From assembly GCA_964603485.1 (NCBI GenBank), contig CAZRVE010000002.1, forward strand, positions 1-55,480: DNA of 55,480 bases. Reading direction: 5' to 3'. Positions within the stretch are counted from its first letter, which is position 1. Every line of letters begins with the position of its first letter. Below the pieces are notes generated by a model. It was not told the DNA's origin, ran no database searches, and saw only the letters and a program-made list of their open reading frames with translations. Positions 4,070 to 54,752 of the stretch are shown here, piece by piece. The translations under genes were made by a program, and so were the position numbers. Origin of the DNA: an uncultured Candidatus Saccharibacteria bacterium (GTDB lineage Bacteria > Patescibacteriota > Minisyncoccia > Phycocordibacterales > Zambryskibacteraceae).

Positions 4070-4558
4070 TTACGCTTTCTTTGATGCGATCTGATCAAGT
4101 GCAATAACAAATCTTTGAATCGGCGAATTGATGATATTCACAAACTTGCCGTGGAGTACTGGAAGTGGAGGAATCGTTGCGATTTCCATCATGTCCACTT
4201 GTCCAAGAATTTTCCCTTCAAAGATACCACCCAAGATCTTGAGATTGTCTGGACTCTTCTTTTGGAATCCATAGACTTCTCGCGCTGGTGCAATGAGGTC
4301 TTGTGACCATGCAATCGCAAGCTCTCCAGGAAGCTCAGGAATTTCTCCCTCAAGCTTTGCCTCAGCGAGCGCTCGGCGAACGAGTGTTTTCTTTGCTACA
4401 AAATATGTGACACCTGCATTCTTCAAAGCTCTTCGCATTTCGCTGATTCCTGCGACATTGAGTCCGTGAAAGTTTACGAATACGAACGACTTTGCGTGTG
4501 CAAATGCATCATGAAGTTTTGCAACAATTTCTTGTTTCTTCTCTTTTGTAATTGCCAT
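4070..4558 (-). CDS. rplJ: 50S ribosomal protein L10
   Basis: N-terminal KEKKQEIVAKL...FVFVNFHGLNVAGISEMRRALK pattern; sits immediately upstream of rplL. Confidence 0.9.
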   Translation of the reverse strand: MAITKEKKQEIVAKLHDAFAHAKSFVFVNFHGLNVAGISEMRRALKNAGVTYFVAKKTLVRRALAEAKLEGEIPELPGELAIAWSQDLIAPAREVYGFQKKSPDNLKILGGIFEGKILGQVDMMEIATIPPLPVLHGKFVNIINSPIQRFVIALDQIASKKA

Positions 4559-4692
4559 AAAATGTTTTTTTAAAAAACAAACGACCTTTAATAAGGCCGC
4601 AGGAGTTGCGACGAATCGTATTCGATTCGTTTGCCTCGGTAGGGCCTCTGTCCCAAATGGAACTGCCTACTGTCTTTGGCCTTATGGGCATA
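4559..4692 (-). promoter_or_regulatory. Structured rplJL 5' leader (candidate L10-leader-type autoregulatory RNA)
   Basis: Long-range helix ATAAGGCC / GGCCTTAT encloses internal hairpins (for example ACGAATCG-AATA-CGATTCGT), between the promoter and the rplJ ATG. Confidence 0.35.
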
Positions 4693-4720
4693 ACTCTACT
4701 GATTTATAGTTTTCTGTCAA
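4693..4720 (-). promoter_or_regulatory. Promoter TTGACA-N16-TAGAGT for rplJL
   Basis: Minus strand: TTGACA (4720-4715), 16-nt spacer, TAGAGT (4698-4693). Confidence 0.5.
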
Positions 4721-5042: not shown

Positions 5043-5148
5043 AATCCCTCCGAGGGGTGAGAGTAACGTTCTATTTCCTACCCTACCCTCCCCTCAAAAT
5101 CTGTCAATAATTATGTCTCGAGTATTATTTCTTATTGAAGGTCCTAAC

Positions 5149-5182
5149 GGAACAATTTGTTGCGACCGCAACAAATTGTTCC
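5149..5182. repeat. 34-bp perfect palindrome, copy 1 (GGAACAATTTGTTGCG-AC-CGCAACAAATTGTTCC)
   Basis: Read directly from the sequence: 16-bp arms with a 2-nt centre. Flanking AAC/GTT extends the arms to 19 bp. Confidence 0.95.
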
Positions 5183-5203
5183 GTTCTGTAGTTAGTGTAA
5201 AAT
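5176..5203 (+). promoter_or_regulatory. Candidate promoter TTGTTC-N16-TAAAAT overlapping the right arm of palindrome copy 1
   Basis: TTGTTC 5176-5181, 16-nt spacer, TAAAAT 5198-5203; ATG at 5218. Confidence 0.4.
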
Positions 5204-5217
5204 AATAAAATATAAAT

Positions 5218-5781
5218 ATGGAACGCTTAGAGGAAACAACCAGAAAAAATTCCCGTAAAAAGAAACTCAAAAATGCAGTGCTTTCAAGTATAAAAGTTGC
5301 AGGTCTTTTAAGCGTTGCGCTACTAGCACCAAACGCTTTACAGGTATTTGGGAAGAAGGGACTTCTTACTCAAAAAGAAGAGGATAGTGTACGGAGTGTT
5401 CGGAATCGTCTTATCAAGCAGGGCCTCATTGAATATTCTGGGAAAAACCTGGCACTTACTGCTAAAGGTGTTGCATTCATAAATAAATTAGAAGAAAGAA
5501 ATTTCCACATCACAAAGCCTAGAAAGTGGGATAAAAAATGGAGAATCATTATCTTTGACATAAAAGAGGGACGTAAAACCACTAGGGAAAAACTGCGCAG
5601 AACTTTAATTCAAATCGGATTTAAGAAACTGCAGAATAGCGTCTGGATATTCCCATACGACTGCGAGGATCTCGTAACTTTACTTAAAGCAGACTTCAAA
5701 ATCGGAAAGGAAGTCTTATATATAATCGCCGAGCACATTGAGTACGACAAGCGGCTGAAAGCTTTGTTCAGTTTAGGATAA
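5218..5781 (+). CDS. Stand-alone wHTH + Cas2-like (PaaX-C-like) domain protein
   Basis: The C-terminal WRIIIFDIKEGRKTTREKLRRTLIQIGFKKLQNSVWIFP matches the Cas2/PaaX ferredoxin-fold signature. The N-terminal half is basic and wHTH-like. No Cas1 gene or CRISPR array is present. Confidence 0.65.
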   Translation: MERLEETTRKNSRKKKLKNAVLSSIKVAGLLSVALLAPNALQVFGKKGLLTQKEEDSVRSVRNRLIKQGLIEYSGKNLALTAKGVAFINKLEERNFHITKPRKWDKKWRIIIFDIKEGRKTTREKLRRTLIQIGFKKLQNSVWIFPYDCEDLVTLLKADFKIGKEVLYIIAEHIEYDKRLKALFSLG

Positions 5782-5800
5782 CGAGCAATCCAGCACATCC

Positions 5801-5834
5801 GGAACAATTTGTTGCGGTCGCAACAAATTGTTCC
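5801..5834. repeat. 34-bp perfect palindrome, copy 2 (inverted relative to copy 1; centre GT)
   Basis: Exact reverse complement of copy 1. Lies between the convergent genes 5218-5781 (+) and 5850-6197 (-). Confidence 0.95.
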
Positions 5835-5849
5835 AACAACTTTAATGTA

Positions 5850-6197
5850 CTATTTTCTAAGTCTTTTCTTAAGGTACTTCACTCCGAACCAAATCAATAT
5901 AAGTACTACATATACCAGTACAGCCACAAGAATTGTTTGATCCCTGCTAGGGCCAAACATATTCTGGTCCGCATCGCGAGCTATAAGCCATGTAAGAGGT
6001 ATGTAGAATAGGGTAAATAATAAAAACAATCTATAGCTTGAGGTGGCCAGAGCCCATACTCCTGAGATACACATAAAAATAAACACAAGTAAACCAAATA
6101 CCCCCGCTTCGTCTGCCATTAAAAAAGATTCTAAAAGCGGAAAAGTTAAAATTCCTAAAATGATGTAAACAATAGTAAGTAAAGCAAATTTATTCAT
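5850..6197 (-). CDS. Small integral membrane protein (4 predicted TM helices)
   Basis: Hydrophobic 115-aa ORF; 4-nt overlap (ATGA-type coupling) with the upstream lipase gene. Confidence 0.6.
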   Translation of the reverse strand: MNKFALLTIVYIILGILTFPLLESFLMADEAGVFGLLVFIFMCISGVWALATSSYRLFLLFTLFYIPLTWLIARDADQNMFGPSRDQTILVAVLVYVVLILIWFGVKYLKKRLRK

Positions 6198-8965
6198 TTA
6201 AATTTTAAATTGCTATTTAATATATCTAGATACTTAATAAGTAATTGTACCTCATCTTCACTAAAACCTCCCCTATCCTTTTCTTTCAATAAAAGCTGAT
6301 TTAGATACTTAGTTAATTTGTCTATTCTCTCTATTGTTTTTTCTAGTTTTTTATTTTTTAGAAACTCCCTTATAGAATTTATCTCCTTTAGCAACTTACT
6401 TTCTTGTGTTTTTTTGAGATCAAAACTGCCTATAATATCCTCAACAATCTCAAGATAAAGATTTGGCCTAAATTCAGTTTGAGGAGTTATTACTGTATCA
6501 ATAACGCCATCCCCCTCTATATCAATACTAATATCACCAACTACATTATGAGTATCAATATCTACTTTGGCTTCGAGTGATTCAGTCACCGGAATATCAA
6601 TAAAACTTTGAGTCGCAACATTTCCGTTATTGTACTGATCAACATTTAAAGTAAATATTCCCGAGCCCTCTCCTTTAACATGGACTGTATAAGCCGTATC
6701 CATGGGAACAATAATATATTTTTGATCATTAATCTCACTGTAATCACTATTCGGGACATCTTCACGTATAAATACAAAATCTCCCCCATCTCTTATTGGG
6801 TCTCTACCAACAATCTCTCCTTGTCCATTAGAGACAGTCAAAGAAACTGGAGAGTGCGTACTTATCCGTTGATATGAATTTGAAAGTGGTGGCTTTGATT
6901 GACTGACGTAAGAAGGAAGTGGCTCAGTTACTCTAGAGAGAACAATGTTCTCAAGTAATTCTATTACGTTCAAGTTTTCAAGAATGTCAGAATGTTTTCT
7001 ATTTATTAATAAATTTTTATTGCTATTAAAAATATCCAGAAAATAAATATTTGGATTGTTTACATTTGCATATTCAGCACTCTGGGCCATAACTGTACCA
7101 TCGCCATCAAAACTTCTTAACAAGATACGATCCCAAAAATACTCACTTTGGCAGCCATAAAGACCGCTCCGTGTGGCGCAGACCACTTCTTCCTTGGCTC
7201 TATACTCAATGCCACTAATCGTCGCCCCGCCAACCCCCACAATCTGCTGTGTGTTTATAAAATTAGGAACTACCCACTGGGAAAGACTTTCAATATCGGC
7301 ATTTGCGCCATTAATCAAATCCGCTCTTAAAGTGAGGGGTATATCTATTGGGTCCCTAGTAGCACCGCTCCTATTTGCAGAAGTGACAAAAGAAACTAAA
7401 TCAGCATAAGAGGAGATTGTTTGTGGAAAATTATACAAGGTGTAATCAAAAACATTACGAATCGAAGGATTGAAATCAATAACGTTTGATATATTGTTCT
7501 GAAAATAAACACTTGAAGGCAAAAGATTATGCGCACTTTTCATATTAAACCCTAGATCTCTAGCGGAATTATTCCTAAGTAAGAATCTCATTAAGAAACC
7601 TTGTCCATCCCCATGTAATAAACCGGTGATTGCCTTAGGTGTTCCTAATTGTGGAACAGCAACCATCGTAAACTGATCTACAAGATCTCCTTTCCCCTGA
7701 CTTACCAGTTCTCTAATTAGGTATTTGCCAACAAGCCCGCCATTACTATGCCCAATAATAGTTATCTTGCCAGTAGGAGATCTTTGAGCTAGAGAGACGG
7801 CTTCATCAATAAGCTTTTTATTTTCAAAATTATTACCTACTTTTACTAAAGTAAAATTATTTACAATCTCAGATAAATCTCTCCTCCAGTCATATGGAAA
7901 AGGCAACCATTCTTCTATATCTTGAACCTGCACAAGAGATCTCATTTTATCTGCAAAACTCTTGTAAATATTCACCCCAAAAGCTTCTTCAATAATATTC
8001 TTTGTATAAATACCAGAAGTTATGGAATTTCCCTGTGAATCAAATCTGAGCTTATCAACATCCTGTTGCAACAAACTTGTGGGCGGCCACAACTGATTCT
8101 CAGAAATGCCCTCCTGAACGTACAGGTCACTTGCCATGAATCCAGGAAGAAACAGAACGCTAGAACAGCAGAGCGAAGGTTGTGAAGAAGAAGCATATCT
8201 ACCAGAAAGCCAGGGAATAAAGTTTACGTTATCATCCACAGGCACACCCGTACCGCTTGAATTCAGTTGTAAATGAAACGGGCCAGATGCATCATTCCAC
8301 CAATTGTTAGTAGCCGAAATAACATTAGAACTTTGATTTATCACACCAACACTCGCTGCTTCGATATTTGAATATTCTATAGACACATCGCCACCTGTAG
8401 AAAGGATACCCGTATCGTGCCTGAGAACATCCAGTTTTTGCAATACAGAAGTTCCTGATCTATTGTGAACTCCAACAATTCCATCAGATAATGTCGAACT
8501 ACTTATATTTAAAATCCCATCATTAAGAATAGTTGACTGCGTAAACTGCATTCCTCCTGCATAGCGAATAAAAACATTATCTAAATCTGCTCGAGATCCC
8601 GATTCTATTTCTATCCCTAACCACTCTCCTTTATCCGGCATGGTGCTATTTCCATCTAAGTTAGTATCACCAAAAACAGAATCATCCTTATCAGAGGTGA
8701 TGTATATCGGTTGGTTAGCGGCACCACTTGCAACAAGATTTCCTCCACGGAGGATGAACACCCCTTGGCTTCTTACTTTCACCACAACCCCAGGATCAAT
8801 CGTGAGAGTTACCCCTGGGTAAATAATAAAGGGATCATTGAGAAGGTATGGGCTATCTTGAATAGTCCAAGTAGTATCGACTTGGACATCATCGACAACC
8901 GTTACCCCATAAACAGCAGACGGAAAGATGAACATCACAACTATAAGAAATAAAGATGGTTTCAT
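6194..8965 (-). CDS. Secreted protein: signal peptide + right-handed beta-helix region + alpha/beta-hydrolase (lipase/PGAP1/LCAT-like) domain
   Basis: N-terminal signal MKPSLFLIVVMFIFPSAVYG; beta-helix-like repeats; nucleophile elbow ITIIGHSNGGLVG (GxSxG). Confidence 0.75.
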   Translation of the reverse strand: MKPSLFLIVVMFIFPSAVYGVTVVDDVQVDTTWTIQDSPYLLNDPFIIYPGVTLTIDPGVVVKVRSQGVFILRGGNLVASGAANQPIYITSDKDDSVFGDTNLDGNSTMPDKGEWLGIEIESGSRADLDNVFIRYAGGMQFTQSTILNDGILNISSSTLSDGIVGVHNRSGTSVLQKLDVLRHDTGILSTGGDVSIEYSNIEAASVGVINQSSNVISATNNWWNDASGPFHLQLNSSGTGVPVDDNVNFIPWLSGRYASSSQPSLCCSSVLFLPGFMASDLYVQEGISENQLWPPTSLLQQDVDKLRFDSQGNSITSGIYTKNIIEEAFGVNIYKSFADKMRSLVQVQDIEEWLPFPYDWRRDLSEIVNNFTLVKVGNNFENKKLIDEAVSLAQRSPTGKITIIGHSNGGLVGKYLIRELVSQGKGDLVDQFTMVAVPQLGTPKAITGLLHGDGQGFLMRFLLRNNSARDLGFNMKSAHNLLPSSVYFQNNISNVIDFNPSIRNVFDYTLYNFPQTISSYADLVSFVTSANRSGATRDPIDIPLTLRADLINGANADIESLSQWVVPNFINTQQIVGVGGATISGIEYRAKEEVVCATRSGLYGCQSEYFWDRILLRSFDGDGTVMAQSAEYANVNNPNIYFLDIFNSNKNLLINRKHSDILENLNVIELLENIVLSRVTEPLPSYVSQSKPPLSNSYQRISTHSPVSLTVSNGQGEIVGRDPIRDGGDFVFIREDVPNSDYSEINDQKYIIVPMDTAYTVHVKGEGSGIFTLNVDQYNNGNVATQSFIDIPVTESLEAKVDIDTHNVVGDISIDIEGDGVIDTVITPQTEFRPNLYLEIVEDIIGSFDLKKTQESKLLKEINSIREFLKNKKLEKTIERIDKLTKYLNQLLLKEKDRGGFSEDEVQLLIKYLDILNSNLKFK

Positions 8966-8966
8966 G

Positions 8967-10385
8967 TTAATCGAATAGCCGTTTAAAGAAATTTACAAAA
9001 CCAATCCAAAATCCTTTCGGCTTACTCACCTCGAAAGCTTGGGAAACCGCTGCCGGTTGAGGTGATATTTCTTCTACAATAGATCCTGTGCTGTTATCAG
9101 CCTCTGAAGCAGCGGTATTTTCTATCTTGTCAGCTAATAATATTTTTGGATTTTCTTTAGAGCCTGGAACACTCTCCGGTTTTACCGTTACGTCTGAAGA
9201 TTTTGAAACCTCCTCCACGATAATCTTCTCTTTACCCGTGTAGACATAAGCAAGTCCAAGTGGATTTTTGATTTTAATAGGAAAAGCTGGAGTAAGGATT
9301 ATCCCCAAAGCGGAAGGTGGGATAACAACCGAAACCTTCCCTTTAATAAGGGTATCTTGAGGAAAGGTAAAAACTTGATCCAGAGATTCTATCTTCCATC
9401 GATGTAAATTTATCTCATCTTTCCCATGATTAACTACCTTCACAGAACCATCAGGAAGAATGGTCATCTCAACTTCGGGTTCAACAACCTTTACAAGGAC
9501 CCGAGAGACGACACTATCTTCACCGCGAGATGCGTTAAGTACGACAATATAATCACCAGGGTATCGATAATTATAGGTAATAACCTGACCGTTTTTTTGC
9601 GACCCATCACCCATCGACCAAGAAAAGGAGGCGCTTCTACCGGTGTAAGAATGTTGATTCTTAACCTCAGCACGAAACATTACTTCATTTCCAACAGCAA
9701 CCAGACGATCCTTGCCTATAGAAACAGAGAAAGGCTGACTACTTTCCACTTTAGATTCTTGAGCAGAAGTGGAATATGTAGAAATAGACACAGTCTGCGC
9801 ATTAGAGAGTGGCGTTGTATTATTTTGATCGCTGACTAAATTTACCCTACCTGGATTTGGAATTCCTGGCTTCCACTCATTTGATATTTTTTGCAAAGAC
9901 GTTCCATCTCCATTAGATCCCATATCGGAGGTGTAAGAAAACGTATCGATGTCCAAAAGCAAAGAATCTCTGATAGCAAGAGTCTCTCCTGTGTTCGACA
10001 GACTAAAAGAGCTATCAAATATAGTTCCAGTAAAACCTGCGTGCTCAGCAAGAAATGCATTTGGATCATCACTAATAATTGCAAAACTATTCGGTGCTAA
10101 ATTTTGATTTCCTTGGAATATCTTTAGTCCATGGTTTGAATTCCCTTCAAACAGTTTCCAAGTGGAGAAATCGACATCTTGTGAACCTACATTTTGCACC
10201 TCAATCCACTCATTCGAATCAGTCCCCGATAGGTCATACATAACCTCAGTTATAATCACCTGCCCATAAGAAACCAGAGGCAACAATAAGAAGACTGCAA
10301 TCGTTAGTGTTTGTAAACAAAACCTCTCACGCGGTGCGTGAGAGGTTTGTGATTTAATATTGGATTTGTATCGAAGCCCCGGCAT
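8967..10385 (-). CDS. Secreted lamin-tail-domain (LTD) + PKD-domain protein (start uncertain)
   Basis: LTD signature VIITEVMYDLSGTDSNEWIEVQNVGSQDVDFSTWKL; PKD-like FSWSMGDGSQKNGQVITYNYRYPGDYIVVLNA. The start is taken as MPGLRYK, but the ORF is open up to 10445. Confidence 0.7.
   Translation of the reverse strand: MPGLRYKSNIKSQTSHAPRERFCLQTLTIAVFLLLPLVSYGQVIITEVMYDLSGTDSNEWIEVQNVGSQDVDFSTWKLFEGNSNHGLKIFQGNQNLAPNSFAIISDDPNAFLAEHAGFTGTIFDSSFSLSNTGETLAIRDSLLLDIDTFSYTSDMGSNGDGTSLQKISNEWKPGIPNPGRVNLVSDQNNTTPLSNAQTVSISTYSTSAQESKVESSQPFSVSIGKDRLVAVGNEVMFRAEVKNQHSYTGRSASFSWSMGDGSQKNGQVITYNYRYPGDYIVVLNASRGEDSVVSRVLVKVVEPEVEMTILPDGSVKVVNHGKDEINLHRWKIESLDQVFTFPQDTLIKGKVSVVIPPSALGIILTPAFPIKIKNPLGLAYVYTGKEKIIVEEVSKSSDVTVKPESVPGSKENPKILLADKIENTAASEADNSTGSIVEEISPQPAAVSQAFEVSKPKGFWIGFVNFFKRLFD
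10321..10347 (-). terminator. Strong hairpin (terminator/attenuator) between the small TM ORF and the LTD gene body
   Basis: 11-12-bp stem AACCTCTCACG(C) / (G)CGTGAGAGGTT, followed on the minus strand by TTGTTTAC. Confidence 0.45.
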
Positions 10386-10515
10386 TGTTTGTGTTGGCGG
10401 TGGCCTGTTGCTCACCCCACCATTGAGTAAACAAGAGAACGGCAAAGCTTACCGCTAAAATTGCGAGAAACCCAAAAAGAAACTTGAAAAACGTATTATC
10501 GAAATATTTCAGCAT
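10354..10515 (-). CDS. Small membrane protein (53 aa)
   Basis: MLKYFDNTFFKFLFGFLAILAVSFAVLLF... contains a single TM helix. The stop lies just upstream of the 10321-10347 hairpin. Confidence 0.4.
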   Translation of the reverse strand: MLKYFDNTFFKFLFGFLAILAVSFAVLLFTQWWGEQQATANTNNAGASIQIQY

Positions 10516-10547
10516 TAAATAATATTGTACCGCAGTATTTTTATGAG

Positions 10548-10575
10548 TAAATACGGCCTCTCCCCTCCGGAACAA
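10548..10575 (-). promoter_or_regulatory. Candidate promoter TTGTTC-N16-TATTTA overlapping an arm of palindrome copy 3
   Basis: Minus strand: TTGTTC (10575-10570), 16-nt spacer, TATTTA (10553-10548). Same geometry as at copy 1. Confidence 0.35.
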
Positions 10576-10602
10576 TTTGTTGCGACCGCAACAAATTGTT
10601 CC
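10569..10602. repeat. 34-bp perfect palindrome, copy 3 (same orientation as copy 1)
   Basis: Identical 34 nt; flanking CC/GG extends the arms to 18 bp. Confidence 0.95.
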
Positions 10603-10653
10603 GGGAGTCTCTTGAGCACATCGTAGACTAAGCCCTCCCCTTACTACCCCCTA

Positions 10654-54590: not shown

Positions 54591-54660
54591 TGTCTTGGTA
54601 GTTATTTTGAGAAATATAGGTGCGGTTAGCTGTCTTGGTAGTTTTTTGAATAAATAATAG
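54591..54660 (+). repeat. Tandem ~40-bp repeat units containing degenerate copies of the tRNA-Val 5' half plus an AT-rich -10-like box
   Basis: TGTCTTGGTAGTT at 54591 and 54631. GCGGTTAGCTGTCTTGGTAG (54622-54641) versus genuine GCGATTAGCTCAGTTGGTAG (54663-54682). Confidence 0.6.
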
Positions 54661-54733
54661 GGGCGATTAGCTCAGTTGGTAGAGCAACCCGTTTACACCG
54701 GGAAGGTCATAGGTTCGAGTCCTGTATCGCCCA
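54661..54733 (+). tRNA. tRNA-Val (TAC)
   Basis: Manual fold: acceptor GGGCGAT/ATCGCCC; D-arm GCTC-AGTTGGTA-GAGC; anticodon loop TTTACAC; T-loop TTCGAGT. Confidence 0.9.
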
Positions 54734-54752
54734 CCCTTTTAATTTAAGCAGA

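Follow-up and report, generated by a model that had tools for sequence, protein, structure and literature searches.

PaaX is a repressor of phenylacetate catabolism in Escherichia coli W and Pseudomonas. According to a review (PMC9493321), the E. coli protein has TGATTC(N27)GAATCA as its binding site and acts on its own promoter as a repressor, through steric hindrance. In the PaaX structures 8a39 and 3l09, as in that of Rv0674 (3kfw), an N-terminal winged helix precedes a Cas2-like dimerisation domain. Here we describe a 187-aa protein with the same succession of domains, hereafter mini-PaaX, which is encoded in a stretch of 55,480 bases of the patescibacterial contig CAZRVE010000002.1 (hereafter the window). 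The gene is framed by two copies of a 34-bp palindrome, P1 and P2, and a third copy, P3, is found beyond the adjacent operon. For comparison within the family, 80 homologous loci from Paceibacteria genomes were used. The three palindromes are probably the binding sites of the PaaX-like regulator that they flank; the locus would then consist of a local, autoregulated transcription factor together with the operators that it uses. The gene and the palindromes are as follows.

5218-5781, plus strand: mini-PaaX gene, 187 aa, with a winged helix at approximately residues 15-98 and a Cas2-like PaaX_M domain at approximately residues 100-185.
5146-5185 (core 5149-5182), no strand: P1, 19-nt perfect arms, centre GCG-AC-CGC; proposed operator at the regulator's own promoter.
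5801-5834, no strand: P2, centre GCG-GT-CGC, in the gap between the regulator gene and the gene of a 115-aa protein, whose 3' ends converge there; proposed second operator.
10567-10604 (core 10569-10602), no strand: P3, 18-nt perfect arms, centre AC.

The protein and its family

Profile searches and structure prediction bore out the first-pass annotation, which had suggested a winged helix and a Cas2/PaaX-like fold for the protein enclosed by the palindromes. Residues 102-177 matched the Pfam family PaaX_M (PF20803, 'PaaX central Cas2-like domain') at 2e-21 (76.3 bits versus a cut-off of 24), whereas the match to Pfam Cas2 (PF09827, 4.9e-05) reached 23.9 bits and barely passed its cut-off of 23.8, placing mini-PaaX far nearer to PaaX_M than to CRISPR Cas2. 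Pfam also gave a weak match to HTH_45 (0.0024), no match to its N-terminal PaaX model and none to PaaX_C, the protein terminating at residue 187. Among the NCBIfam profiles, PaaX (TIGR02277) aligned residues 54-161 with profile positions 33-140 at 1.1e-10, its 41.6 bits being far under the cut-off of 264.55, and cas2 (TIGR01573) scored 28.5 bits, over its cut-off of 24.5. An AlphaFold model of the protein, built on 117 sequences (pLDDT 72), consisted of a winged helix and then a beta-alpha-beta-beta-alpha-beta domain. The best Foldseek matches of this model in the PDB were E. coli PaaX 8a39 (E 6e-6, 180 columns) and then Rv0674 (3kfw), while winged-helix proteins, Cas2 proteins and VapD nucleases were among the lower-ranked neighbours, so that a comparison with Cas2, VapD and PaaX, as the first-pass annotation had suggested, places PaaX at the top and Cas2 further down. 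A hydrophobic stretch at residues 20-44 was considered as a possible transmembrane helix, but this was rejected, since in the alignment of the model with PaaX, which spans 180 columns, the stretch corresponds to helices 1-2 of the winged helix.

Compared to PaaX, which has approximately 305 aa, mini-PaaX is shorter and lacks PaaX_C, and therefore has no obvious means of sensing phenylacetyl-CoA; nor are any paa genes found near mini-PaaX. It shares with CRISPR Cas2 the ferredoxin-like fold, an xxFDI motif in beta1 and a conserved Asp at the end of beta1, but differs in being fused to a winged helix and in its surroundings, as we found no Cas domains in the neighbouring proteins, no cas1 or other cas genes nearby and no CRISPR repeat array in the window. 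Likewise, no transposase domain (HUH/Y1, Y1_Tnp or others) was detected in open reading frame (ORF) 5218-5781 by Pfam, in agreement with the earlier statements that the protein is not a Y1 transposase and that the window holds neither a Cas1 gene nor an array.

Homologues of mini-PaaX form 1,401 clusters at 90% identity, with a uniform length of approximately 188 aa, and 1,496 clusters at 50% identity (E <= 1e-10); all close relatives are approximately 180-200 aa long, and at least 555 matches were obtained in species-representative genomes. In contrast to PaaX, the family is essentially confined to Patescibacteria (Paceibacteria), with several paralogues per genome: the hosts are essentially all metagenome-assembled genomes of Paceibacteria/Parcubacteria, often with at least three paralogues each. 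Paralogues sharing one genome are approximately 45-50% identical, each with its own palindromic element, and no relatives were found in the viral contigs searched. Public records (NCBI and JGI) name the relatives 'PaaX' or often 'CRISPR-associated endonuclease Cas2', which is explained by the profile scores of mini-PaaX, above the NCBIfam cas2 cut-off and with a match to the PaaX profile as well. The Cas2 name is best regarded as a misannotation. The locus belongs to a branch of the PaaX family with two domains, large and so far undescribed, that is specific to the candidate phyla radiation (CPR). In the literature library that was searched, no paper links PaaX with Cas2 or describes this protein family or its palindromes.

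Palindromes, putative promoters and arm variation

The 34-mer GGAACAATTTGTTGCG-AC-CGCAACAAATTGTTCC sits at 5149-5182 (P1), its reverse complement with the centre GT at 5801-5834 (P2), and a third copy with the centre AC at 10569-10602 (P3), so that direct sequence search confirmed the three copies reported by the first-pass annotation. The perfect pairing is longer than had been noted there, with the arms of P1 and P3 extending to the 19 and 18 nt listed above. The spacings given for the gene were correct, with the ATG (5218) 35 nt past P1 and P2 19 nt past the stop (5781), as was the distance of 19 bp between the nested AACAAWTTGTT dyads in the arms. The dyad centre of P1 is situated 52 nt 5' of the ATG, and P1 folded as single-stranded DNA gave -20.2 kcal/mol (z = -10.4). 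Allowing up to three mismatches, no further copies of the 34-mer were found in the 55,480 bases, and 100 shuffles yielded none; all three copies in the window are at most 5.5 kb from the regulator gene, and a class-wide scan of the window for such elements returned P1-P3 plus one marginal site only.

The palindromes proved to be a family trait. When the best dyad was sought on either side of the gene, within 120 nt upstream and 150 nt downstream, a matching element was present on both sides in 66 of the 80 loci, compared to 0 of 400 control window pairs drawn from other parts of the same loci. The arms are wholly different among genomes and among paralogues of one genome, and are matched across the two sides of each gene. 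Symmetry was high at positions 2-4 from the dyad (0.91-1.0), lower at positions 5-10 (0.62-0.77) and high again at positions 11-18 (0.89-1.0), decaying beyond, and the identity between upstream and downstream copies followed the same three-part profile. Position 3 is G in 132 of 132 arms, with centres such as GCTATAGC, GCGRYCGC and CGATCG. The site is hence tripartite: an inner spacer of lower symmetry separates a C-N4-G centre from two outer boxes, with approximately 29 bp from the midpoint of one box to that of the other, and the perfect palindrome of the window is one version of this arrangement. Like the PaaX operator, it is long and carries short inverted boxes about three helical turns apart (N27 in PaaX), but its spacer is itself palindromic and its C-N4-G centre invariant, and a second copy downstream of the gene, nearly universal for mini-PaaX, is a further difference from PaaX. 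In approximately one third of the loci the inner spacer (positions 5-10) is not self-complementary in either copy while the centre and the outer boxes are kept, and hairpin pairing is therefore not the conserved feature.

Two observations made on this locus did not extend to its relatives. The inverted orientation of the two flanking copies is real in the window but is set by the central AC/GT dinucleotide alone, and across the family the relative orientation is random, with 23 direct, 19 inverted and 22 tied cases among loci with asymmetric elements; the copies therefore match neither transposon ends nor REP/RAYT geometry. The idea of terminal inverted repeats, which came from locus L005 where the copies appeared exactly inverted, was rejected by the same systematic orientation test. 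Similarly, the nested dyads, which had been read as a possible double operator, do exist here but are peculiar to this locus.

The upstream copy overlaps either the -35 region or the -10 region together with the ATG, depending on the locus. In 29 of 66 loci the ATG is exactly 17 nt from the dyad centre; in those loci the outer box reads ...GTGT ATG GG, the proteins begin with MG.LE, and the right inner segment takes the form of a TAnnnT box, placed 6 nt 5' of the ATG. From its sequence, this arrangement of TAnnnT and ATG is a leaderless-type promoter built into the putative operator element. Many genes of the family (loci L001-L085) have a TATAAT-like box 6-8 nt before the ATG without a Shine-Dalgarno sequence, and the promoter of the window operon is alike; the layout suggests that leaderless mRNAs are common in this gene family. 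For the regulator of the window, comparison with promoter consensus sequences offers two options.

5176-5211, plus strand: putative regulator promoter, both options included; in option 1 the right arm of P1 contains the -35 box TTGTTC (5176-5181), and the -10 box TAAAAT (5198-5203) follows after 16 nt.
5206-5211, plus strand: putative regulator promoter, option 2, where another TAAAAT precedes the ATG by 6 nt, in keeping with the leaderless layout of the relatives.

The first option is the one pointed out by the first-pass annotation, and the supply of TTGTTC by the right arm of P1, 16 nt before TAAAAT, was verified. Under either option, a protein bound to P1 would overlap the -35 region, and such an overlap of the site with the gene's own promoter resembles the autorepression of PaaX at Px.

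The similarity of the arms was also compared with the identity of the two protein regions over 2,145 locus pairs. Arm similarity co-varied with identity in the winged-helix region (partial r 0.21) and not with identity in the Cas2-like region (partial r 0.03), mean identity being 40% and 63%, respectively; because locus pairs share phylogeny and are not independent, this co-variation is supportive and not proof. It fits variable winged helices that would read the variable boxes and a conserved dimer core that would lie over the conserved centre.

Third copies of the locus-specific element were found 0.4-6.7 kb away in loci L018, L031, L035, L039, L081 and L085. The third copy of L018 is at the far 3' end of a divergent operon, and that of L085 (16583-16627, CCCTCCAACTATTGCTAAGCTATAGCTTAGCAATAGTTGGAGGG), one of three copies in 20.5 kb, is placed upstream of the rpsS-rplV-rpsC operon of ribosomal protein genes, between it and the gene of an FAD/NAD-binding oxidoreductase, 6 kb from the PaaX-like gene. 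Two palindromes with a GCTATAGC centre and shorter, different arms (TTTCAGCTATAGCTGARAT) were observed at L041:9381-10132, where they bracket a RelE-type toxin/antitoxin pair beside dprA, and one such palindrome is present at the same dprA-side position in L020 (8098-8194). No paralogues were found by tblastn near such solo elements in the loci, and elements with foreign arms may be targets of paralogues encoded elsewhere.

Neighbouring operon and orthologous loci

The regulator gene has rplJ, small ORFs and the genes of an LTD/PKD protein, an LCAT-like lipase and a PG_binding protein as its neighbours. Whereas P1 and P2 bracket the regulator gene, P2 and P3 bracket an operon with the following features.

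5850-10445, minus strand: operon of three genes between P2 and P3, a candidate for local control by the regulator.
8967-10445, minus strand: LTD+PKD protein, 492 aa, start listed as TTG 10445 (ORF list and Pfam).
6194-8965, minus strand: LCAT-like lipase/esterase, 923 aa (ORF list and Pfam).
5850-6197, minus strand: 115-aa protein (ORF list).
10524-10551, minus strand: operon promoter-like site from a consensus scan, TTTACT, 16 nt, TACAAT, with an ATG (10515-10513) 8 nt past the -10 box.

P3 is located 17 nt 5' of the -35-like hexamer of the operon and 52 nt 3' of the stop of a conserved 358-aa gene, and it is this position that suggests control of the operon by the regulator. At the start of the operon (10354-10575, minus strand), ATG 10515 opens a hydrophobic N-terminus resembling a signal or transmembrane segment (MLKYFDNTFFKFLFGFLAILAVSFAVLLF...) in a frame unlike that of the 492-aa LTD/PKD ORF; either a small membrane protein is encoded separately here, or the LTD start may contain a frameshift or an error of the assembly.

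Orthologues that are 74% (L081), 64% (L082) and 56% (L083/84) identical occupy the same site and are likewise transcribed away from the rplJ operon; the palindromes have diverged along with them, so that each orthologue has a version of its own. Between the window and L081, 5 of 16 arm positions differ, and the changes are mirrored. Locus L081 also has three copies, with P3' placed alike relative to the 358-aa and PG_binding genes, but between P2' and P3' (L081:2269-5728, compared to 5801-10602 in the window) it carries a DNA methylase (440 aa) and a MutH-like endonuclease (463 aa). Remnants of the 115-aa gene (residues 59-115) beside P2' and of the LTD gene (residues 8-55) beside P3' are retained in L081, and in L082 the genes of the 115-aa protein and the lipase are both kept. 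At this site the operon is ancestral and, since remnants of both of its ends persist in L081, the restriction-modification genes replaced the operon interior and the palindromes were not the junctions. A 'cargo slot', with P2 and P3 as recombination sites exchanging cassettes, was rejected on the basis of these remnants of the 115-aa and LTD genes.

Two further observations concern other parts of the window. Upstream of rplJ (4070-4558), the region 4565-4697 on the minus strand gave a full-length match to the L10 leader (RF00557) that remained sub-threshold (32.8 bits versus a gathering cut-off of 44). At 54591-54682, a unit of approximately 40 nt is repeated about twice (82-86% matches) and enters the start of tRNA-Val (54661-54735).

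Proposed mechanism and competing explanations

An autoregulated repressor with its operators, one of two hypotheses put forward in the first-pass annotation, is well supported by the two-domain kinship with PaaX, the PaaX-like geometry of the operator, the overlap with the promoter and the co-variation of arms and winged helix. We propose that a dimer of the regulator would recognise a tripartite site of approximately 34-40 bp on double-stranded DNA, the outer boxes (here TTGTTCC/GGAACAA, centres approximately 29 bp apart) being read by the two variable winged helices, while the invariant C-N4-G centre (here GCG-AC-CGC) would be under the conserved Cas2-like dimer core. Since P1 overlaps the gene's own -35 region, its occupancy would control transcription of the gene, most likely by repression, like that by PaaX at Px. 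P3, located 5' of the promoter of the LTD/PKD-lipase operon, would tie the operon to the regulator, and P2 may serve as a second binding site, from which the bound protein could bridge or loop cooperatively to P1 and P3, or where it could block or terminate transcription. Lambda CI, with OL and OR, is a known case of a repressor gene lying between its own operators, and LacI, DeoR and GalR are looping repressors. Similarly, the proposed operators flank the regulator gene and are 0.6-5 kb apart, a spacing that would allow cooperative long-range bridging; however, the folds are unrelated, the sites are single long palindromes compared to clusters of 17-bp operators, and mini-PaaX is assumed to be a dimer.

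Several points weigh against this interpretation. We infer the whole of its functional side: that the protein binds the sites at all, that it represses and does not activate, that its Cas2-like domain acts at the centre, that P2 serves for looping or as a roadblock, and that the operon is controlled. D114, the Asp equivalent to that of Cas2, shows at least 90% conservation, many further positions in the Cas2-like domain vary little or not at all, and an enzymatic role is therefore possible. Next genes are convergent in 43 cases and co-directional in 35, and the downstream copy is nearly universal in both settings, an indifference to orientation which means that it is not explained by a simple promoter-operator role; that it might be the promoter of the next gene was rejected, as an ORF starts at +17 in only 1 of 66 loci and the orientation of the neighbours is mixed. 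In the window and in approximately half of the loci, the full 32-58 bp are perfectly palindromic, the outer limit varying by copy, and where copies within a locus differ, a change in one arm tends to have its counterpart in the other (50 mirrored cases, with 2 same-side, 0 cross and 33 unpaired). Such symmetry exceeds the need of a dimeric protein and may reflect formation of hairpins or cruciforms, or template-switch correction; the symmetrising of long quasi-palindromes by template switching is a known mutational process. Finally, two metagenome scans, with the core of the window element and with the L085 element, matched nothing and gave no genome-wide copy number, and the copy counts cover the 55-kb window and 20.5 kb of L085 (752-kb JGI contig Ga0453684_0000030).

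It is unlikely, in our opinion, that the elements form a structure-dependent module, in which extruded cruciforms or hairpins, or RNA hairpins in untranslated regions, would be bound or cut by the Cas2-like domain, resulting in post-transcriptional or topology-dependent self-control and possibly involving a nuclease. The perfect arms of 16-29 nt in approximately half of the loci and the prevalence of mirrored over same-side differences would agree with such a module, as would the G/C clamp around a variable 4-nt core at the centre and the stable DNA hairpins predicted for the elements (-16 to -20 kcal/mol, z -6 to -10), together with the conservation of Asp114 and its surrounding Cas2-like motif and the presence of Cas2 and VapD nucleases among the structural neighbours. 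There is also a published precedent, as HlyU of Vibrio parahaemolyticus is reported to act at the exsA promoter on a palindrome that can form a cruciform (bioRxiv 10.1101/2022.03.07.483294). The likeness consists of a winged-helix regulator and a perfect palindrome near a promoter able to extrude a cruciform, whereas HlyU is of the ArsR/SmtB-type family and has a single site, and extrusion here is hypothetical. However, positions 5-10 are unpaired in approximately one third of the loci although the centre and the outer boxes are kept, upstream copies bearing the -10 box are asymmetric yet retained, and the likely promoters would leave P1 untranscribed. Pairing at the RNA level was rejected as well: the ratio of G.T to A.C mismatches on the sense strand, 13:11 upstream and 22:13 downstream, shows no convincing strand bias and hence no sign of RNA-level selection, and an Rfam search of the region matched no family except the sub-threshold L10 leader. 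A related and quite unlikely possibility is that the structured DNA and the Cas2-like domain do more than repress: the winged helix-Cas2-like protein would recognise an extruded cruciform or hairpin, or process it via Asp114, at places bracketing transcription units, as part of a Patescibacteria-specific boundary or insulator system built on the Cas2 fold; if so, the mirrored substitutions would be the trace of hairpin-templated correction.

That the palindromes are generic bidirectional terminators or insulators, bracketing transcription units without a link to a specific protein, appears very unlikely. P2 is indeed situated between convergent 3' ends, whole units are bracketed (the window operon, the L018 operon and the RelE toxin-antitoxin pair of L041), and the hairpins are very stable. 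Nevertheless, the regular terminators of the window are different, having a GC-rich stem between A and T runs, and a terminator scan of the window reported none of P1-P3, which do not have the layout of an intrinsic terminator, a GC-rich stem-loop and then a T run, T runs being absent from their flanks. Furthermore, the elements are locus-specific, matched across the gene and co-varying with the winged-helix region, the upstream copy is phased with the promoter and the start codon, and only three copies are present in 55 kb. The low copy number and the phasing also speak against a selfish or mobile unit, to which we give hardly any credence, be it a hairpin-ORF-hairpin of the REP/RAYT, IS200 or homing type or a set of palindromes serving as cassette-capturing recombination sites. 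A REP/RAYT-like hairpin-nuclease module was the other hypothesis of the first-pass annotation, and the analysis gave it no support. As in REP/RAYT and IS200/IS605 systems, copies of a hairpin-forming palindrome with a lineage-specific sequence flank a gene, here identical ones, and several paralogues per genome, the differing cargo between P2 and P3 (a surface-protein operon in the window, a restriction-modification system in L081) and the toxin-antitoxin pair of L041 bracketed by similar palindromes could be taken in the same sense. Yet there is no HUH/Y1 or other transposase domain, the orientation of the flanking copies is random, the orthologues are inherited vertically at one syntenic site by rplJ, and the copies are few and local rather than dispersed genome-wide, as far as 55 kb shows. 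In addition, paralogues within a genome are too diverged, each with its own element, to be recent copies, the L081 remnants put the restriction-modification insertion inside the operon and not at the palindromes, no relatives were found in the viral contigs searched, and the spacers are unpaired in approximately one third of the loci.

To our knowledge, Patescibacteria have small genomes, few recognisable regulators and no genetic systems. If mini-PaaX is a regulator with its own operators, as we consider probable, the family would be one of the main transcription-factor families of Patescibacteria. Many of the 'CRISPR-associated endonuclease Cas2' annotations in these genomes do not denote CRISPR components. 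We know of no structure of a PaaX-type protein in complex with DNA, and the two-domain form with its conserved operator centre could clarify how a PaaX-type Cas2-like dimer spans approximately 30-40 bp. In conclusion, as the cognate DNA site would be readable straight from both flanks of the gene, the family would offer ready protein/operator pairs for studying regulation, leaderless promoters and the evolution of specificity in an uncultivated lineage.

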